From a virus: 30,325 bases of DNA. The stretch is from the UHGV virus genome UHGV-0061407. One strand, written 5' to 3'. The notes under the pieces were generated by a model that worked only from the letters and a program-made list of their open reading frames with translations, ran no database searches and was not told where the DNA came from. Each line of letters opens with the position of its first letter. Position 1 is the stretch's first letter. The position numbers and the translations under genes are program-made. Positions 1,158 to 10,353 of the stretch are shown in pieces.

Positions 1158-1865
1158 TTAGAGAATTTTTGGGAGAGAAAACTGGCTCAGTTGCTGGCGC
1201 ATCGCCGCAATAGCCGCTTTGGTTTCGCCGTCTTCGCCCCCGGACTCACTCCGGTCAAGCAGATAGGACAGTCCGCGGGAGGCGACCGCGGCGGACTGAC
1301 TTTTCGAGAAACCTGCCTCTCGCAGGAACTTCTCAAATTCAGGTAAGGAAGGAAGATCACCGTGTGACAGCTTCGACTTAATGACGTCAATACGCGCATC
1401 ATCATTGGCCGGCACGGTAACAATGGAGATTTCAACCAGGTCGAGCTTCGTTAAGGTGCGGATCCGGGTTTTCTCATCGTAATTTGACTCACGGACGTAA
1501 TAGCCAATGGAAAGGCCTGTAATGGCACGGGTTTTCATGCCCCGCCAGGCGGTTTTCGCGTAGGCCGCGTCTTCAAGCCACAGGGCCCCTTCACCAAAAA
1601 GCCCATGTTTATCTTCTTTCAGGGTCGAGATGTCCCAGTTCCCGATGGGTTCGCCGGTGCGATGCTGCCAGAGAACCGGGAACGTTCTCCCCTTCGCCCG
1701 TGTTTCCTCGATGCTTTCGAGGAACGCACCCGGCGCCACGACTTCGTTGTAACTATCGACAACATCGAAGACAGAACCGTATCCAGAAAAAAGGCCGTCA
1801 TCGTTGACGGCCTTAATATCGAAGTTGAATGCCTTTACTTTCATGGCTGCGTTTTTCCGGTACAT
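1158..1865 (-). CDS. Prohead maturation protease, HK97 family
   Basis: 235 aa ORF between portal and capsid; sequence pattern typical of HK97-family prohead proteases; start overlaps portal stop (1841-1865). Confidence 0.85.
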   Translation of the reverse strand: MYRKNAAMKVKAFNFDIKAVNDDGLFSGYGSVFDVVDSYNEVVAPGAFLESIEETRAKGRTFPVLWQHRTGEPIGNWDISTLKEDKHGLFGEGALWLEDAAYAKTAWRGMKTRAITGLSIGYYVRESNYDEKTRIRTLTKLDLVEISIVTVPANDDARIDVIKSKLSHGDLPSLPEFEKFLREAGFSKSQSAAVASRGLSYLLDRSESGGEDGETKAAIAAMRQQLSQFSLPKIL

Positions 1866-3160
1866 TCCGGCGTCTCCTCTGATTTAATGCCAAGCCATTC
1901 CCGCAGTGCGTTTTTGGCCGATTCACTGTCGCCGGACTTGCCAAGCTGATCTATCGGCAGCAGGTTAGATTGAACGGTTAGTTGGTCAGCGCCAGGTTTT
2001 GGCTGAAGGTTTTCTTTTTGCCGTGCTTCATTGCGAGTCATCAGACCGTTCTGGGTCATCGTTGAGTAAAAAGCGGCACGGGCGGCGCTGTCGGCACGTA
2101 AGAGACCTTCGATGGAAAACTCTGCGAAGTACTTATTTCTTTCTCCCGGAGCCAGGAGGCTTTTACGAATCGCCTGCTCAATACGGGTAAGCCATGGACG
2201 AAGTGAAAACGTTAAAAAGCCAATCAGCATCTGTTCGACGCCACTTCCCCACATTGTCTGCCCCTGGGCACTGTGTCCAATCAACCCCGGCCATACTCTG
2301 AACCACCGACAAATCTCTTCGATATTGAATGCCCTGGACTGCAGCATCTGGGCGTCTTCCGGGTTGAGGTCAACTGGCTGAAACTTCATTCCCGCTTCAA
2401 GAACCATCATTTTCCCGGTATTCATAGATCCAGAAAATTGTTCAACCATGCTTTCACGTACTTCATTGCGCTGCTCTTTTTTCAGGATTTGATCCATTGA
2501 GAGAACGCCACTGGGCCGCATACCATTTTTAAAAACTTTTGCGCTGGCTTCATCTGTTGCCATTGCCAGACCAAGTGTCTGTCGGGCATAACTGACAGGT
2601 GACAGGCCCATGACACCATTGGTGCTGAACGCACGGATGTGCATGATGTCCCGTTCATTAATGTTTCGGGATGTACCTGAAGGCCAGTCACGGTAGGTAT
2701 AAATAGGATCTCCGCTGCTACTTAAATCAACCTTCATCCTTTCTGGCCTGAGCGGTACAAGCGAGGTAATACGCTTTCCGGTACGGTCGATTTCCGCGTA
2801 AGCATTCCCCCATAAAAGAAGGCTGGCCATGATCATTTCCCAGAACTCCACAGCGGTCATGTCAGCATTCGGCTGATTATGGAGGAGCTCATAAAGCGGG
2901 TGATCATTTGCACTCTGGCGACCATCAGCCGTTTTTTCGTAAAAACCTACAGGCAAAGTCGCGATGGTTTCGGATAACAGCCTTACACATGACCACACTG
3001 CCGATAACTGCAGGGCTTTATCAACCGTAACGGATTTGCCTGCTGCGGACTGCCCACCAGCATAAGCAGCCCAGAATTCACCGTCTGTAAGTGCGATGGG
3101 TACGCCGAGCCACCGGCGAACGGCGCTTTTTATCCGGCCTGGCTTCTTATCTTTATTCAT
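1841..3160 (-). CDS. Portal protein, HK97 family
   Basis: 439 aa ORF immediately downstream of terminase large subunit; size and sequence character of HK97-type portal proteins. Confidence 0.85.
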   Translation of the reverse strand: MNKDKKPGRIKSAVRRWLGVPIALTDGEFWAAYAGGQSAAGKSVTVDKALQLSAVWSCVRLLSETIATLPVGFYEKTADGRQSANDHPLYELLHNQPNADMTAVEFWEMIMASLLLWGNAYAEIDRTGKRITSLVPLRPERMKVDLSSSGDPIYTYRDWPSGTSRNINERDIMHIRAFSTNGVMGLSPVSYARQTLGLAMATDEASAKVFKNGMRPSGVLSMDQILKKEQRNEVRESMVEQFSGSMNTGKMMVLEAGMKFQPVDLNPEDAQMLQSRAFNIEEICRWFRVWPGLIGHSAQGQTMWGSGVEQMLIGFLTFSLRPWLTRIEQAIRKSLLAPGERNKYFAEFSIEGLLRADSAARAAFYSTMTQNGLMTRNEARQKENLQPKPGADQLTVQSNLLPIDQLGKSGDSESAKNALREWLGIKSEETPECTGKTQP

Positions 3161-3166
3161 GGTGAC

Positions 3167-4903
3167 TCACACAATGATGGGATTACTGAAAAAGTCGTCG
3201 ATATCGCCAGAATCATCCTCATAGCCTTCGGAGGCACCGATTGCCATAGCGCCCGCTACAATGCCGTCGATACGCCCGGTACTTTTTTTCTTGGCAAAAA
3301 TTCGGTTTTCTTTCTGATCAGCCTCCGTCACTGCTGAAGCCGCATTCCAGCGAAGACAAGGGTTCGTCCTGATGATAATGACGCTGTCATCAAGCAACTC
3401 TTCAAACAATTCGATGGAGTGAGGCATCCACAGCCCGGAATCTTTCGCTTTGTAATACCCTTGCCCATGAGGGATTAAGGGAACAGAAACAGATGCTTCC
3501 TCAAGCTCCGGCTCAAGATATTTAATGCGATACTGGTCGAAGGCGATGGCCTTGATATCAAACTTCTGAGTCAGATCTGCAATGCGCTGGGCAACAAAGC
3601 CGTATTTCACTGCTTTGCCAGGAGTGGTGTGGATGTGACCATCTCGCTCCCAGGCGTCATAAGGTACCCGGTCCGTTTTGGCCCGTTCCAGTAACGTATC
3701 TTTCGGGGTCCAGAACTCCACCAGCAACTTACGTTGTTTTGGAAAAAACAACGCCAGTGCCGTCAAATCACGCGATCCGGACAGGTCTAAACCGCCATAG
3801 CATTCCTCACCTTCCAGTTCATCTGGATCAAAGCTCTCCTCACAACCCATCCAGACATCACTGCTCATCCACGGATTAGCCGCGTCAACCCACTGACAGA
3901 AGTTAAGACGTCTGACGATGCTCTCTTTCGAAGGCATCCCGCGGGCCTGAGTCACCTGCTCACGAAGATAGCTTTCTTCAAAGGTGTGACCCAGCGAAGG
4001 GTTAGCTTTTTTCCAGCAGGACTCATCCTTGAAAGGATCGTCTCCTTCATCCAGAGAACAAATGAAGGCAAAAAAGCTGTCATCTTCTATCGAACCGGCA
4101 GAAACCTTTCGGCCGTATTCGTGATAGTCATAGCAGACGCTCGTTTTATCGTGCCCACTGTTGGTGATCATGAAAATCAGCGCCTGCCGACGACCTTTGG
4201 TACCGGCACGCATCATTTCAACAACCTGATTGCTTTTATGCTCGTGAACTTCATCAATAAGAGCACAATGCGGTCGCGGGCCGGACTGTCCGTCATCTGA
4301 ACTGATTGGACGAAAGAAGGAACCAGACTGAAGAAAAGCCAGGTTCCATTCCTTCCCGGCACCACCTGATTTCTGAATACGTGCGGAAAGAGCTGGAGAC
4401 TGATCGACCATCGCCACCGCATCACGGAAAAGGACCATTGCCTGGTCTTTCTTCGTGGCAGCGGCATAAACTTCAGCGCGTGCTTCTTTATCCGCAGTGA
4501 GACAGTAAAGCCCTATACCCGCAGACAGAGGGGATTTACCGGATCCCTTCCCGGACTCCACATAGACCATTCGGAACCGGCGAAAACCTCTGGCGTTTTT
4601 CCAGCCAAAAATCGAACCGACGATGAAGCACTGCCATGGCAGCAACACGAAAGGCTCGCCTTCGAAATCACCACCATTGAGCTTCAGAACTTTCGCAAAA
4701 TAGTCAATCGAGCGTTGCGCCGCCTCAACATCCCAGTGCAGACCACGGGCATGACATGACTGCAGATCGTTAAGGTGGCGCTGGCATGAGTTACGTATGT
4801 CAGGACCAGCCAGTTCTTTGCCCGAGGTTACATCCATCGCATATTGGGTTGCAGGATCAACCGAAGAACTTGTCGAGCGTGTCCTCTTCGGGGTCTTCGC
4901 CAT
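3167..4903 (-). CDS. terL: Terminase large subunit
   Basis: 578 aa; Walker A-like ATPase motif (VESGKGSGKS) and C-terminal nuclease-like region; alternative start at internal Met (MDVTSG, about 4837) would remove the 47-nt overlap with terS. Confidence 0.9.
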   Translation of the reverse strand: MAKTPKRTRSTSSSVDPATQYAMDVTSGKELAGPDIRNSCQRHLNDLQSCHARGLHWDVEAAQRSIDYFAKVLKLNGGDFEGEPFVLLPWQCFIVGSIFGWKNARGFRRFRMVYVESGKGSGKSPLSAGIGLYCLTADKEARAEVYAAATKKDQAMVLFRDAVAMVDQSPALSARIQKSGGAGKEWNLAFLQSGSFFRPISSDDGQSGPRPHCALIDEVHEHKSNQVVEMMRAGTKGRRQALIFMITNSGHDKTSVCYDYHEYGRKVSAGSIEDDSFFAFICSLDEGDDPFKDESCWKKANPSLGHTFEESYLREQVTQARGMPSKESIVRRLNFCQWVDAANPWMSSDVWMGCEESFDPDELEGEECYGGLDLSGSRDLTALALFFPKQRKLLVEFWTPKDTLLERAKTDRVPYDAWERDGHIHTTPGKAVKYGFVAQRIADLTQKFDIKAIAFDQYRIKYLEPELEEASVSVPLIPHGQGYYKAKDSGLWMPHSIELFEELLDDSVIIIRTNPCLRWNAASAVTEADQKENRIFAKKKSTGRIDGIVAGAMAIGASEGYEDDSGDIDDFFSNPIIV

Positions 4904-5321
4904 TCACTTTCACCTTCGTCCTTGCCGCTGGCGTCAGACCGAATTCAACCAGGTAACTTTTAAAACGGCGGTCGGCATCGGCCAACATCGAAACGGCCGG
5001 GTTAGCTTTGATAAGAAAACCACCCTCGGTCTGGACGGTATAGGTTCTTCCCTCTACTGCGATGGTGTCGCGCAACTGAAGAATATCAGCGTAAATATCG
5101 CATAGCCGTTCAAGGGCTAAGGTGTCGGCAACCGTTAAAACCCCCATCCCGTCAAGGAGAACAGTCAACCTTCCCCAGGCAACCTTTCCCCAGTCGGTCA
5201 GGTGCGCCGGCGGGCTTGGAATTTCTCGCGCCGGAGTCGGTTCTTTATCGTTGAGTTTACGTTTGCCCGGGTTGCCTGAGACCACTTTGAGGTGGGTCGG
5301 TTTCGGGCGTCGTCCTGCCAT
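4857..5321 (-). CDS. terS: Terminase small subunit (P27-like family)
   Basis: 154 aa ORF directly upstream of terL on the same strand; composition and size typical of P27-family small terminase. Confidence 0.75.
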   Translation of the reverse strand: MAGRRPKPTHLKVVSGNPGKRKLNDKEPTPAREIPSPPAHLTDWGKVAWGRLTVLLDGMGVLTVADTLALERLCDIYADILQLRDTIAVEGRTYTVQTEGGFLIKANPAVSMLADADRRFKSYLVEFGLTPAARTKVKVNGEDPEEDTLDKFFG

Positions 5322-5438
5322 CGGAACCTCCCGGAAAAAAACTTTTCATTTCGCGGTTGTGCACAAAAAGGATGGGCGGCGGTCATTTCGGGTCAGACTT
5401 CTGAACTTTTGACCCGCCCCTCCCCTATGGAATTGACG

Positions 5439-5780
5439 TCATCTGAACCAGTGAGAATTTGGATCAAGCGGAATACCGTTTTCATCGCAGCCGATAACGG
5501 TGCCGCGCTTCTCCATTCGCTGCTTCGTTGAGTCATGGTGCTGCTTACACAGCCCTTGCCAGTTCTTCCGGCTCCAGAAAAGCTTTTGCGCTTTCGCTAT
5601 TGCCTTGCTGTCACCAGAACGCAGAGCCTCTTTCAGTTTATGCGGGATGATGTGGTCAACCACCGTGGCGGCTGTCACCCTGCCTTGCTCGTGGCACATG
5701 ACGCATAAGGGGTGCGCACGAAGGAATAGAAGACGCTCACGGTCCCATTTGCTGCCATATATGCGCGGTTCTTTGTTCAT
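5439..5780 (-). CDS. HNH endonuclease (packaging-associated)
   Basis: 113 aa with Cys/His-rich HNH-like motifs (CVMCHEQGR...VDHIIPH...LCKQHHDSTKQ); position upstream of terS as in HK97-like cos phages. Confidence 0.8.
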   Translation of the reverse strand: MNKEPRIYGSKWDRERLLFLRAHPLCVMCHEQGRVTAATVVDHIIPHKLKEALRSGDSKAIAKAQKLFWSRKNWQGLCKQHHDSTKQRMEKRGTVIGCDENGIPLDPNSHWFR

Positions 5781-5834
5781 GTTTTCGTTCCTTGAGCATT
5801 ATCACAGGCACTCAGTGAATGCCTGCTGTAATGC

Positions 5835-6080
5835 CTAGCTGGACTGCTCAGCAGCGGTATCAAAGAGCGGCAGCGCTTCAGTTGCTTCCTGCACTGCTTT
5901 CATCGTCTTTGCCACCACTTCAGTCTCTGATGTGACACGGCTGTATTGCTGGATGAATAGCTGATATTTAAGCGGACTATCCTGAACAAACTCTACAGCG
6001 ACTTTAGCTGCTGCTGTGTCGTAGTTCAGGGTGGAAAGCAGGTTCAGGCGAATCTGCTGGGCGTCGGTGATTTCTGCCAT
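5835..6080 (-). CDS. Hypothetical phage protein
   Basis: 81 aa ORF, same strand as packaging genes; no recognisable motif. Confidence 0.45.
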   Translation of the reverse strand: MAEITDAQQIRLNLLSTLNYDTAAAKVAVEFVQDSPLKYQLFIQQYSRVTSETEVVAKTMKAVQEATEALPLFDTAAEQSS

Positions 6081-6183
6081 GTCTTACCTCTGTGCGATGT
6101 GGGAGGCTTTATCAAACCACTTCGGAAAGCGGCTCCGTGATGCCATTAAAAAAGCCACCCGGAGGTGGCCTTTCTGATGGCTA

Positions 6184-6215
6184 AGAAAAAGGCCGCAAAA
6201 AAATGCGGCCTTTTG
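6184..6215. terminator. Terminator-like hairpin (ggccgca-aaaaaa-tgcggcc) flanked by A/T runs on both sides
   Basis: Perfect 7-bp GC-rich stem at 6192-6198/6205-6211, T-run 6212-6215 on plus strand and T-run on minus strand (complement of 6184-6190). Confidence 0.4.
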
Positions 6216-6657
6216 TCATGCACAGTTATCGATTAAATAAACTCTCAGGAGCCATCCGGGAGAGCCTCACTTAAACGAGTAACTAACCTCCGACAGACTG
6301 GTGTTGGGACGGAGGTGCAATGAGAGTAGTGTGTTTCATTTTTTTTCATACCAGCAACCACACAATAATGGCAGTTCTTCTTGTTAATCGATAACTGCTA
6401 TTCAATTAGTCTGGCCAGACGGATGATTATCCTGCCAGGGGTCATCACACTCACACGATGAAAATCTTTAAAATAAAACATTAGCCGGTTCACTCGCCTT
6501 CGAACAGGTGCAATGGCCTTGCACTGACGAAATTAGATTTAATCGTTCGTTGCCATCTTCCGTACAAGCCAAATAGTCACAAAAAAATAAAGGTTAAAAA
6601 GTGAGCTATTTACTGTCCTGTGGTGTATGGTTAGCAATCACTCACGAGGATAAAACC

Positions 6658-6828
6658 ATGTCTATGCTCAAAGACAAGATACGTACACTCAGGCCTGTAA
6701 AAAGCACCTGTCCTCACTGCTCTCGCCAGTCAACACATAGCCTGTCGAGAATTAAAAACGATATAACATTGATCTGCCCATACTGCGGAAATATTTTCCT
6801 CCCCTCAGAAAGTAAACCTGTTAAGTAA
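6658..6828 (+). CDS. Small zinc-ribbon protein (CxxC...CxxC), moron-like
   Basis: 56 aa from ATG 6658 with GAGGA RBS 9 nt upstream (track ORF 6601..6828 starts at an upstream GTG); CPHC and CPYC pairs; only plus-strand gene in a minus-strand block; hairpin actgaagc/gcttcagt downstream (6844-6877). Confidence 0.45.
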   Translation: MSMLKDKIRTLRPVKSTCPHCSRQSTHSLSRIKNDITLICPYCGNIFLPSESKPVK

Positions 6829-7042
6829 CTGATCGAATACTTTACTGAAGCTGATGTTCACTCTTAGGCTTCAGTAATCGAAACGTTGACATGCTTCTTC
6901 TCCTGCTTCTGGCAATAAAAAAGGCCGCCATTGGCGACCTGGGTTCAAATTATGTGTGTCAGGGCATATGACACGAGTAACCGCAGTAATAGCCACCGTT
7001 GGATTGCGGGTTGACTTTCTGCATATTCTCTGCAACCTACAT

Positions 7043-7237
7043 TTAAGTATAGATCGAACCAGCAGTCCCGATTATCGCAGCAAGCAGAAAGAAGGTGACG
7101 GCAGTTCTACGCATTTGCACGCCATAAAATGACAGAGCCAACCCGACGAAAGCAACAATTAAAACTGTCCACATATCCAGTAAGAGGAAGAGATATCCCT
7201 CGAAAGCACTGTCAATCAGTACGTCCACATCGCGCAT
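7043..7237 (-). CDS. Hypothetical small membrane protein
   Basis: 64 aa, two hydrophobic segments; poor RBS spacing, so weak. Confidence 0.3.
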   Translation of the reverse strand: MRDVDVLIDSAFEGYLFLLLDMWTVLIVAFVGLALSFYGVQMRRTAVTFFLLAAIIGTAGSIYT

Positions 7238-7406: not shown

Positions 7407-7646
7407 CTACATTTTGGTGCGAGCGATTGCCAGACAGCGCAAAGCTTCATCAATCTCCCGAGCCTGCTCAGCACTTAACATTGCCGGGCCATTACGGACA
7501 GCCAACAATTCACCTCGCTCGGTATCAAGCAAACTACATAAGTGGCGGCTGACGCCTTTGAGGCGGTTCATGCGCTCAATCTCGCCCGCGGTTAATGTGC
7601 GGTAGCCTTTTACAGTGCTGCCGTCCTGCGGTTTTGCTTCACTCAT
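7407..7646 (-). CDS. Hypothetical protein downstream of lysis cassette
   Basis: 79 aa ORF; stop/start overlap with o-spanin (7643-7646). Confidence 0.45.
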   Translation of the reverse strand: MSEAKPQDGSTVKGYRTLTAGEIERMNRLKGVSRHLCSLLDTERGELLAVRNGPAMLSAEQAREIDEALRCLAIARTKM

Positions 7647-7873
7647 TTCGTAGCCTTTTCGGTTGGTTGCGGGCAGTTAGCCTGCACTGATTTGTTGTGC
7701 GCCAGAATGTCGCGCTTGGTCTGCTTATCTAGCACGTCAATATCGTGGTCAGTCAGGTAGATAATCCGCACCCAGTTGCAGGCGGTATCAACCACCACCG
7801 GGGTGGGTAAATCTTTCGCGCAGCTCGCGATCAACATCGTCATCGCCCATACGCTTAACGTCTTCCTGTACAT
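7643..7873 (-). CDS. Outer-membrane spanin (Rz1-like lipoprotein), overlapping frame
   Basis: From internal Met (MYRKTLSVWAMTMLIASC...) signal peptide with lipobox I-A-S-C; Cys near C-terminus; begins inside the i-spanin gene in a different frame, the classic overlapped spanin architecture. Confidence 0.55.
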   Translation of the reverse strand: MYRKTLSVWAMTMLIASCAKDLPTPVVVDTACNWVRIIYLTDHDIDVLDKQTKRDILAHNKSVQANCPQPTEKATK

Positions 7874-8063
7874 CGCTGGCCCCTTTCGTTGCATCAGCCC
7901 GGCGTTCTGCCGCGGCGACGGTAGCAGCGGCGTTTTCTTCAGTGCGCTGCTGCTCGGCTTTGGCTTCCGCCTTGCTGGTCCCGCGCGCATGGCCTAACCC
8001 AAACGCGCCAGCGATTAAGCCAAGCAGAACGACTACCAGCCCGCTGATAAATTCAAGGCTCAT
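7788..8063 (-). CDS. Inner-membrane spanin (Rz-like)
   Basis: 91 aa; N-terminal TM segment (FISGLVVVLLGLIAGAFGL) followed by charged Ala/Glu/Arg-rich periplasmic region; overlaps o-spanin start. Confidence 0.5.
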   Translation of the reverse strand: MSLEFISGLVVVLLGLIAGAFGLGHARGTSKAEAKAEQQRTEENAAATVAAAERRADATKGASDVQEDVKRMGDDDVDRELRERFTHPGGG

Positions 8064-8404
8064 TGCGCCTCCTGCTGCTCATCGGCTATTTCTTTCAGCT
8101 TTGGCTGTCTGACGTATTGAGAGAGGATGGCGAGCACCACCAGGGCCGGGCTAATCATTGCCACAATGTTTGCAGGCAGAATATCTTTGATATCCGGCGG
8201 CAGCATCGCCCAGGCATGAAGAGCTGCGTCCGGAAATGATTGGGCCCATACACCGACCAAAGCGCCGGCAGCACCCAGGCGGACAGACCATGTTTTAAGC
8301 AGCAACCGGGCATGACCAACAAACTCCAGCCGGGTATATTTGCGCACTAGCAACAGAACCAGCACGGCCACCAGCGCCAGCAGAGCGAAAATAATCATCT
8401 TCAT
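8060..8404 (-). CDS. Lysis-cassette membrane protein (two TM segments; holin/antiholin-like or accessory)
   Basis: 114 aa between endolysin and spanins; two hydrophobic helices; start overlaps endolysin stop. Confidence 0.5.
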   Translation of the reverse strand: MKMIIFALLALVAVLVLLLVRKYTRLEFVGHARLLLKTWSVRLGAAGALVGVWAQSFPDAALHAWAMLPPDIKDILPANIVAMISPALVVLAILSQYVRQPKLKEIADEQQEAQ

Positions 8405-8943
8405 AGGCTCACCCGCTCTTTAACCCAGCCGTATAGAAACGCTTCGTTAGCCGGCCTCGCTTCGGCCAACTCAAGATAGCGAGCCCCCTGGCTGCAATTC
8501 AGCGCCTTTAGCAGCGTGGCTTCGCCATCTTTGCCACGAACGGCGAGATAACTTTTCAGGGCGGCGATGGTGAGATTGCCGATCGCGCCGTCCGTCTTCA
8601 GATCCGGATATAGCTTGCCCTGCATATTCAACGCCGTTAACCAGCGCTGCAGGAATGTACTGGCGACACGTGGCCCCATGTTCACGCCAGTATCACACAA
8701 TTCCTGTGCAATGGCTGGCGACAACTCGGCGATGCAGTCAAACTTCGGTTCTGTCCAGTATTGCGACAGATAAATTGCTTTGGCTGTATCCCGTGGTAAC
8801 GCCTTCATATCGCCGCTATAGCCATATGCGCGGGCGGTAGTCTGCGTGATACCCCAGCGCGTTGGGCCGCCTTTATCATTCGGGTTATTTACGTAACCCC
8901 CTTCTTTACCGAGGATGCCCTCGATAATCTGATCTGCTGTCAT
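8401..8943 (-). CDS. Endolysin, glycoside hydrolase family 108-like with C-terminal peptidoglycan-binding region
   Basis: 180 aa; N-terminal motif EGGYVNNPNDKGGPTRWGIT characteristic of GH108 phage lysozymes; flanked by holin and spanins. Confidence 0.85.
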   Translation of the reverse strand: MTADQIIEGILGKEGGYVNNPNDKGGPTRWGITQTTARAYGYSGDMKALPRDTAKAIYLSQYWTEPKFDCIAELSPAIAQELCDTGVNMGPRVASTFLQRWLTALNMQGKLYPDLKTDGAIGNLTIAALKSYLAVRGKDGEATLLKALNCSQGARYLELAEARPANEAFLYGWVKERVSL

Positions 8944-9251
8944 GGCTCCTTAACTCCGGTAATGCGCTCCCAGAAATAGGTCAAAGCAACAGAACCCATT
9001 GCCCCGCTAATTCCGGAAGTGGCCAGTATCATGTAAATGCTCAATCCGCTTTCAATGCTCACCAGGCCAGCAATAACGCCGGTAAACCCTGAAACCACCA
9101 TTTGGGCAAGAGCATTGATCAAGCTCCATGTTGCCTTGCTCTGCTTCACATCTATCAGGTAGCGGACAAGTCCACCCCAGCAAGCAATGATCAGCAGAAC
9201 CAGCCAGGACATCCCGGCAATGCTCTCTTTGTCTTGCATACGTTTAGCCAT
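8940..9251 (-). CDS. Holin (putative, 3 TM segments)
   Basis: 103 aa hydrophobic protein immediately upstream of endolysin with 4-nt overlap; GGAGG RBS upstream of ATG. Confidence 0.6.
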   Translation of the reverse strand: MAKRMQDKESIAGMSWLVLLIIACWGGLVRYLIDVKQSKATWSLINALAQMVVSGFTGVIAGLVSIESGLSIYMILATSGISGAMGSVALTYFWERITGVKEP

Positions 9252-9927: not shown

Positions 9928-10353
9928 TCACAGGTACTGGTCTAGTGGAAGTTGCAGAGCCTGGGCAATTTTCTTCAGCTGTTTCTCTTCTTCTTCCCCG
10001 ATGCCGTCGTTATCAGCTACATCAAGACACAGGCAAAGAACATCGACAGCGTCATCCGTCCCGGCAACATCAGCCAGTTCGCGCAGCGCCTGAGCGTTGG
10101 CTGAACGCGGTGATGCTTCATAGCGAGCGCGAATATTCGAACTCATCTGGGCAATTTCACCAGCAAATGGCGCGAATGCCGGGAGGGCCGAAATAGTCTT
10201 CTCCAGCACTGCAATCTCTTTTGCATCGCAGGTACCATCGGCGTATGCAATCGAGTACGCTCCCCAGACCGTGGCTTCTACGGCATCGCGGTTTTCCATT
10301 TTTTTCACTTCAACAACGGCTTTACGGGCTTTCTTTTTAAAAATACCAAACAT
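9928..10353 (-). CDS. TerB-like (tellurite-resistance TerB family) protein
   Basis: 141 aa; two repeats of the TerB-like pattern (AYADGTCDAKEIAVL and LDVADNDGIGEEEEKQLKKIAQAL) matching what I recall of TerB (a.aDG...eE...l..ia..l). Confidence 0.6.
   Translation of the reverse strand: MFGIFKKKARKAVVEVKKMENRDAVEATVWGAYSIAYADGTCDAKEIAVLEKTISALPAFAPFAGEIAQMSSNIRARYEASPRSANAQALRELADVAGTDDAVDVLCLCLDVADNDGIGEEEEKQLKKIAQALQLPLDQYL

Follow-up and report, generated by a model that had tools for sequence, protein, structure and literature searches.

A probable cos site with 10-nt 3′ cohesive ends between the HNH endonuclease and small terminase genes of an HK97-like prophage

The late genes of the virus genome UHGV-0061407 contain a GC-rich element with inverted symmetry, which lies in the non-coding gap between an HNH endonuclease gene and terS. 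The window, i.e. the whole stretch of 30,325 nucleotides that was analysed, raises the question of whether this element is the site at which the phage DNA is cut for packaging, a transcription terminator, or a structure whose symmetry has a function of its own. The initial annotation had described it as a set of nested inverted repeats in a 117-bp gap and had considered a cos site and an intrinsic terminator equally likely. The gap has this length (5322-5438), the quoted letters are present on the plus strand (gggcggcggtcatttcgggtca at 5374-5395 and tgacccgccc at 5410-5419), and a TTTTT does follow the element on the minus strand (5369-5365).

All of the local genes are encoded on the minus strand in the order lysis cassette, HNH endonuclease, the 117-nt gap, terS, terL, portal and S78 protease (Table 1). 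The region represents the late operon of an HK97-like prophage of the lambdoid kind; in the databases, the closest records (96-98% identity) are prophages and phages of Klebsiella. The HNH protein is 74% identical to HK97 gp74 and 73% identical to the HNH protein of phage AH07; by its sequence it is a homologue of gp74, the accessory nuclease of cos cleavage. The large terminase shares 30% identity with HK97 gp2 over 531 aligned positions, and on this homology it is the predicted main cos-cutting enzyme. The setting is of the cos type, with the gap situated between the HNH gene and a terS that heads an HK97-like terS-terL-portal-protease cluster. The longest ORF for terL and the end of terS have 47 nt in common (4857-4903), and the true start of terL may be located further downstream.

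Several other features of the late region were recorded. The minus strand of the segment 6081-7042 (about 960 nt) contains no ORF of 60 aa or longer. A sub-threshold Rfam match to STnc100 is present on the minus strand at 6180-6249 (27 bits, the gathering score being 47; E 0.002); on the plus strand, a terminator-like hairpin occupies 6154-6169. In the interval that separates the lysis cassette from the DUF2560/HNH genes, the minus strand carries at 6922-6940 a strong hairpin resembling a canonical terminator and oriented in the late-gene direction; this hairpin, AGGTCGCCAATGGCGGCCT with TTTTTATT after it, has 8 pairs (6 of them GC) and a loop of 3 nt. A 141-aa ORF immediately upstream of the lysis cassette (9928-10353, minus strand) matches PHROG 632, which is annotated as a 'tellurite resistance' moron.

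Table 1. Genes of the late region and elements of the predicted cos site in the window; signed positions are counted from the predicted top-strand nick.
Feature	Coordinates	Strand	Details
S78 prohead protease	1158-1865	-	
Portal	1841-3160	-	
terL, large terminase, ATPase and RNase-H-like nuclease	3167-4903	-	Pfam TerL_ATPase, TerL_nuclease
terS, small terminase, P27 family	4857-5321	-	Pfam Terminase_4, E 1.5e-24
Candidate TerS recognition site ACCGCGAAATGAAAA, cosB-like	5343-5357	-	+15..+29; positional equivalent of the HK97 site
Left genome end CCTTTTT (predicted)	5365-5371	-	+1..+7; holds the T-run initially taken as a terminator tail
Predicted cohesive end (cosN), 10-nt 3′ overhang CGCCGCCCAT	5372-5381	-	same register as four known cases
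AAATGAC, flank of the predicted bottom-strand nick (GAC^CGCC)	5382-5388	-	-17..-11; conserved
Variable spacer GAAGTCTGACCCG	5389-5401	-	-30..-18; lowest information content in the alignment
Conserved upstream block AAAGTTCA	5402-5409	-	-38..-31; near-invariant in 64 unique gaps
G-box GGGGAGGGGCGGG, one arm of the flagged repeat	5413-5425	-	-54..-42; high information content (64 gaps)
HNH endonuclease gene, 113 aa	5439-5780	-	ORF; Pfam HNH, E 1.8e-4; PHROG 2323, E 4e-52
Holin/endolysin/Rz lysis cassette	7643-9251		upstream of HNH, with small ORFs

Comparison with phages of known termini indicates that the element is very probably the cos site of a temperate siphophage of the HK97/phiP27 type, integrated as a prophage, whose genome would carry 10-nt 3′ cohesive ends. 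The minus strand of the window reads ...GGGGAGGGGCGGG TCAAAAGTTCA GAAGTCTGACCCG AAATGAC CGCCGCCCAT | CCTTTTTGTGCACAACCGCGAAATGAAAAGTTTTTTTCCGGGAGGTTCCG ATG(terS), and the immediate surroundings of the predicted cut are ...CCCGAAATGAC CGCCGCCCAT|CCTTTTT. The ends of HK97 are 10-nt 3′ overhangs (PMC9410871, Fig. 1 legend; PMC11331095). Its GenBank record ends with ...GCCCCAAATGAC CGCCGCCAAA and begins with GTTTGAATTT, with terS at nucleotide 50. The right end of HK97 therefore reads ...AAATGAC|CGCCGCCAAA, and the sequence around the cut is ...CCCCAAATGAC CGCCGCCAAA(record end)|GTTTGAA(record start). The Discussion of PMC9410871 assigns 10-nt 5′ overhangs to lambda and 12-nt 3′ overhangs to HK97, which contradicts its own Figure 1 legend as well as PMC11331095 and appears to be a slip.

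The second reference is Pantoea phage AH07 (MZ501270), for which PAUSE and PhageTerm were applied to virion reads to define the ends (PMC8567787). Its record begins with CCTTTTTATGCACAACCGCG, the initial CCTTTTTATGCAC corresponding to position 5371 of the window, has terS at nucleotide 51, and ends with ...GCGACCTCCTGAC (final stretch CCTCCTGAC). In 28 loci that carry this site in the prophage form, the two ends are exactly 10 nt apart, and these ten nucleotides are CGCCCGCCCC in 26 loci and CGCCCGCCCT in the other two. A 3′ overhang is trimmed during the end repair of sequencing libraries, and as a result it is missing from the assembled genome and not duplicated. The absence of the 10 nt from the AH07 virion genome therefore supports both the register of the cut and the 3′ polarity of the ends.

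In phiP27 the same ten nucleotides, CGCCCGCCCC, are annotated as 'cos-site' in GenBank (AJ298298, misc_feature); they occupy the same register, being preceded by GGGGAGGGGCGGGTCAAA...GGGAC and followed by GTCAAATTTTTACACCCGCGAAATTAAAAATT. The record of Burkholderia phage phi1026b ends with ...GGGAC CGCCCGCTTC and starts with GTCAAATTTTCACGCCCGCGAAATT (GTCAAATTTTCACGCCCGCGAAAT), with the ATG of terS at position 46. The ten-base 3′ extension published for phi644-2 has the sequence CGCCCGCTTC; it was equated with the phiE125 cos site and described as common to phi1026b (PMC2920897).

In all four reference phages the bottom-strand nick follows GAC and the overhang starts with CGCC, and the window has the same arrangement of GAC|CGCC, six further nucleotides and the left end. 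Because of this in-register homology with the cos sites of HK97, AH07, phiP27 and phi1026b, the cohesive end of the prophage is predicted to be CGCCGCCCAT, and nicks are likely to be made in the minus strand at 5372|5371 and in the plus strand at 5381|5382; both the position and the register of the cut in this prophage are thus assigned by homology. The terS ATG of the window is 50 nt past the predicted nick. The earlier suggestion of a cos site at the position where HK97 carries one, between HNH and terS, is borne out by base-for-base homology with four phages of known ends, and the proposed comparison with the cos sites of HK97-like phages gave a match in exact register. Contig ends in IMG/VR were surveyed through the TerS-based loci and through the left-end pattern, and none of the positions listed fell on the predicted cut; +10 is the start of one contig (L069), and the entries checked appear to be prophage-derived. 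The record of Klebsiella phage P7641 was considered as one that might start near cos and was set aside, since it omits the whole gap and is uninformative on termini. This 'complete genome' (PQ133623.1; loci L001 and L006) starts at the HNH stop codon and ends at the terS start codon, and it looks as though it was trimmed to the CDS boundaries.

The conservation of the gap was analysed among relatives of the prophage. A scan of IMG/VR yielded 596 confirmed TerS relatives, from which the best 80 loci, with TerS at least 89% identical, were kept; 79 of these reach far enough upstream to be usable, and together with the gap of the window they gave 64 unique gap sequences. Anchored on the ATG of terS, the 64 sequences align without gaps. 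Besides the blocks listed in Table 1, the sequence AATGACCGCC is near-invariant at -17..-8, the tail of the overhang is variable at -7..-1, and the left half of the site is almost invariant at +1..+50, while the sequence further upstream of the G-box is unconserved. Blocks conserved at fixed distances amid variable flanks point to purifying selection on this site. Across clades, the left end repeatedly includes a T-run, situated at either +3..+7 or +7..+11.

The predicted cut (5371/5372) coincides exactly with an abrupt break in conservation between an invariant left half and a mosaic right half, a switch that is partly explained by the selection of loci by TerS identity. At least 12 different 10-nt overhangs are combined with essentially one TerS. 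The type of HNH protein tracks the right half of the site: the window-type HNH is accompanied by AAATGAC and CGCCGCC..., and the AH07-type HNH by CCTGAC and CGCCCGCCCC, with TerS and the left half constant across both HNH types. This pattern suggests that recombination joints cluster at cos; the tracking between HNH and the right half is only suggestive, because physical linkage would produce the same pattern anyway. A sister cos clade was also found in IMG/VR (L140, L148, L091, L125 and similar loci). It has the same G-box, AGTTCA and AATGACCGCC blocks, with one nucleotide less between AGTTCA and TGAC, overhangs of the type CGCCCCCCTA and the left end GTCACATTTTTACGCACGCGAAATTAAAAATT, and it bridges the enterobacterial and the Burkholderia phi1026b types.

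The inverted symmetry that first drew attention to the element was evaluated separately. Two inverted repeats are detected: an outer one of 10 nt (5370-5379 / 5414-5423) with one mismatch (90% complementary), and an inner one of 7 nt (5389-5395 / 5410-5416), which is perfect. Of the earlier description as nested repeats, the existence of the two repeats stands; they are not strictly nested, since bases 5414-5416 belong to one arm of both, and they are not above chance. Among 117-nt windows of the same 30-kb sequence, an inverted repeat of 7 nt without mismatches occurs in 24%, one of 10 nt with a single mismatch in 15%, and the two kinds occur together in 11%. Thus, the inverted repeats of the window are no more than expected by chance. 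The symmetry arises because the conserved G-rich block upstream happens to complement the C-rich cohesive end.

It is nevertheless conceivable that the symmetry itself is functional, either through a hairpin or cruciform in the DNA or through a two-fold site recognised by a dimer of the HNH protein or TerL, and that it is needed for cos cleavage. Some of the folding results agree with this explanation. When only the 13-nt spacer was shuffled, the native sequence folded better in 80% of 41 variants (mean z -1.4); in a test of the inner region in 19 lineage representatives, the mean z was -0.94 and the Fisher combined p for energy was 0.0017, a value which is inflated because the lineages are not independent; and phi1026b has a perfect 6-bp repeat, GAAGGC-GCT-GCCTTC, in the same spacer. 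However, the window's own repeat is close to chance (p 0.28-0.37, besides the frequency in background windows given above), the stem-length statistic for the 19 lineage representatives is not significant (p 0.10), and HK97 and several other lineages have no hairpin in the spacer. The spacer includes the TGACCC arm of the inner repeat, and the arms shift register between lineages with no column pair covarying. When all pairs of alignment columns between -60 and +10 were searched for covariation in 60 unique homologous gaps, no fixed-register helix was supported, and the high mutual information reflected lineage structure only; for the outer repeat, formed by the G-box and the C-rich end, covariation is uninformative, since both arms are conserved as sequence. 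In addition, the predicted cut (5372-5381) falls inside the left arm of the element, away from its centre, and not on the dyad axis, and the repeats do not hold up as the defining feature of the site. The spacer shows a weak and non-universal bias toward a small hairpin, and a functional role for the symmetry in cleavage is unlikely. The inverted repeats are incidental and are unnecessary for the cos explanation. A G-quadruplex in the G-box was also considered and rejected, as the window has only three G-runs there.

Alternatively, the element could act on RNA, as an intrinsic terminator of the late transcript or another RNA hairpin, with the G-box pairing with the C-rich segment and UUUUU (5369-5365) releasing polymerase that is not Q-modified; such a function could coexist with cos. 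The minus-strand hairpin predicted for the window (-23.6 kcal/mol) closes at +2, directly before the TTTTT, folding of an AH07-like locus (L054) and of a member of the sister clade (L140) likewise predicts a stem with a T-run after it, and the folding z was negative in all six family members folded (-0.8 to -2.9). Against this, the hairpin is branched and its loop has 24 nt, compared with the usual 3-8 nt of a compact terminator hairpin. The loop length accounts for the silence of the consensus terminator scan, which did not call the element, though it reported five others nearby. The folding energy is not significant either for the 61-nt element (z -1.65; 11 of 200 shuffled sequences were at least as stable) or for the whole gap (z -0.08), and a permissive Rfam search of 5100-7100 gave no match at the element. 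The geometry is also inconstant: no T-run follows the stem in HK97, phiP27 and phi1026b, and in four further lineages (L035, L038, L062 and L075) the predicted hairpin is about 20 nt away from the T-run, the hairpin moving off the T-run where the tail of the overhang is not C-rich. Covariation supports no helix, and there is no conserved combination of a hairpin and a U-tract. All three components of the supposed terminator (G-box, C-rich end and T-run) find an explanation as blocks of cos. The terminator, which the initial annotation had put on an equal footing with cos, is thus quite improbable as an explanation of the element, and termination here is at best a side effect.

Finally, headful (pac) packaging without fixed ends, with the resemblance to cos being a vestige, is hardly credible, given that an HNH gene directly upstream of terS combined with an HK97-type TerL is a cos-type arrangement, that the site matches four defined cos sites in register, and that its cos blocks have been kept by selection across 64 variants.

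For the cos site, a mechanism modelled on HK97 can be outlined. The HK97 TerS binds at +15..+29, to a GC core followed by an A-tract (PMC11331095). By analogy, ACCGCGAAATGAAAA of the window is a putative TerS binding site. The analogy is positional and not homologous, because a BLASTP comparison of the window TerS with HK97 gp1 revealed no similarity. The window TerS has 32% identity with that of phiP27 and 33% with that of phi1026b, and the sequence CCGCGAAAT occurs at +16..+24 in the window, phiP27 and phi1026b. The protein pattern fits the DNA pattern, in that the right half of the site is common with HK97, and CCGCGAAAT is common with phiP27 and phi1026b.

Late in infection, the terminase, consisting of TerS, TerL and the HNH protein, would bind concatemeric DNA at cos. 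TerS docked on ACCGCGAAATGAAAA would form a roadblock stalling the incoming motor, as in HK97, and TerL together with the HNH protein would then make two staggered nicks, producing unit genomes with 10-nt 3′ cohesive ends, with CGCCGCCCAT on the right end. Of the two, the bottom-strand nick would be specified by its invariant surroundings, GAC^CGCC, and the top-strand nick would be set by distance. The proposal that one nick is made by sequence and the other by distance is based on the fact that only the bottom-strand nick lies in invariant sequence; the top-strand nick is flanked by a variable sequence and, across the cut, by a lineage-specific one.

The conserved blocks upstream of the spacer have no counterpart in the HK97 packaging papers found, including PMC9410871 and PMC11331095, in which no upstream cos subsite is defined. 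The 3′ edge of the G-box is located at -42 ± 1 in the window, HK97, phiP27 and phi1026b, i.e. in phages of very different hosts. The block AAAGTTCA also occurs in the sister clade, with spacing shorter by 1 nt, and is weaker in HK97, phiP27 and phi1026b; in the window, 16 nt separate AGTTCA from TGACCGCC. The position of the G-box resembles that of cosQ, which in lambda is upstream of the nicking site. The G-box/AGTTCA block may therefore be a cosQ-like element, and the G-box and AAAGTTCA, 31-54 bp upstream, could serve as a termination or positioning subsite analogous to lambda cosQ. A broader model for the HK97/phiP27 cos family can be advanced tentatively. It combines a third subsite three to four helical turns upstream, composed of the G-rich box ending at -42 ± 1 and, in enterobacterial clades, AAAGTTCA, which would be cosQ-like or would dock the HNH-TerL nuclease; a bottom nick that alone is specified by sequence, the top nick being measured from the TerS site; and two exchangeable half-modules, one comprising HNH and the right half and the other the left half and TerS, which would recombine exactly at the cut. 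An IHF site (WATCAANNNNTTR) was sought in TCAAAAGTTCA and rejected, as it has mismatches at core positions on inspection by eye and its TCAA part is not conserved.

The exact position of cos, if assigned correctly, fixes the true genome ends of this prophage and of many Klebsiella and other enterobacterial relatives. A base-level definition of cos would aid annotation, the re-orientation of phage assemblies, and the prediction of mobilisable cos-bearing satellites and plasmids and of cosmid-like packaging substrates. The G-box, AAAGTTCA, GAC^CGCC and CCGCGAAAT are candidate targets for mutation in the HK97 in vitro system, and the list of conserved positions bears on how the cutting of the two strands is divided between TerL and the HNH protein.

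Among known systems, the element resembles a Rho-independent terminator in that TTTTT comes after a GC-rich stem on the transcribed strand, but differs from it in that this geometry is not conserved across the cos family. The resemblance to lambda concerns the layout. The cos of lambda consists of a nicking site, a TerS-binding region downstream beside terS, and cosQ upstream, and the window likewise has a predicted nicking site, a TerS-side region downstream and a conserved upstream element positioned like cosQ. Lambda, however, has 12-nt 5′ overhangs, no HNH partner, gpNu1 R-sites with IHF, and a partial two-fold symmetry in cosN. The window does not conform to the lambda type, as its homologues have 10-nt 3′ ends and its TerS belongs to the P27 family; direct inspection of the sequence found no dyad centred on 5372-5381.

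The Burkholderia phages phi1026b, phiE125 and phi644-2 share with the window the layout HNH - cos - terS, the G-box and GGGAC|CGCC. Phage phi1026b differs in the phylum-level group of its host, in GC content, in the perfect 6-bp palindrome of its spacer, and in having AGTCTG in place of AGTTCA. The Stx2e phage phiP27 has a G-box (GGGGAGGGGCGGGTCAAA) identical to that of the window, GAC|CGCC, and a TerS of the same Terminase_4/P27 family. Its overhang is CGCCCGCCCC compared with CGCCGCCCAT in the window, the AGTTCA block is not kept, the T-run is at +7..+11 and not at +3..+7, and the HNH protein is only 37% identical over 70 residues. AH07 has a left half nearly identical to that of the window (CCTTTTTATGCACAACCGCGAAATGAAAAG...), while its right half is of the other type (CCTGAC and CGCCCGCCCC). 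In HK97 it is the right half that is shared: the two sites have in common the 14-nt stretch AAATGACCGCCGCC spanning the bottom-strand nick, at the same distance from the end, cos is located between HNH and terS with terS starting 49-50 nt past the cut, and there is a G-rich box, which ends at about -43 in HK97. The differences from HK97 include gp1, which has no Pfam match, a different sequence of the left half (+1..+50), the last three bases of the overhang (CAT in HK97, AAA in the window), and the spacer between HNH and cos, which is 319 nt long in HK97 and 57 nt in the window. The conserved G-box/AGTTCA block, with its possible cosQ-like role, is the only mildly new point, and the predicted cos site is otherwise an ordinary member of a well-known family.
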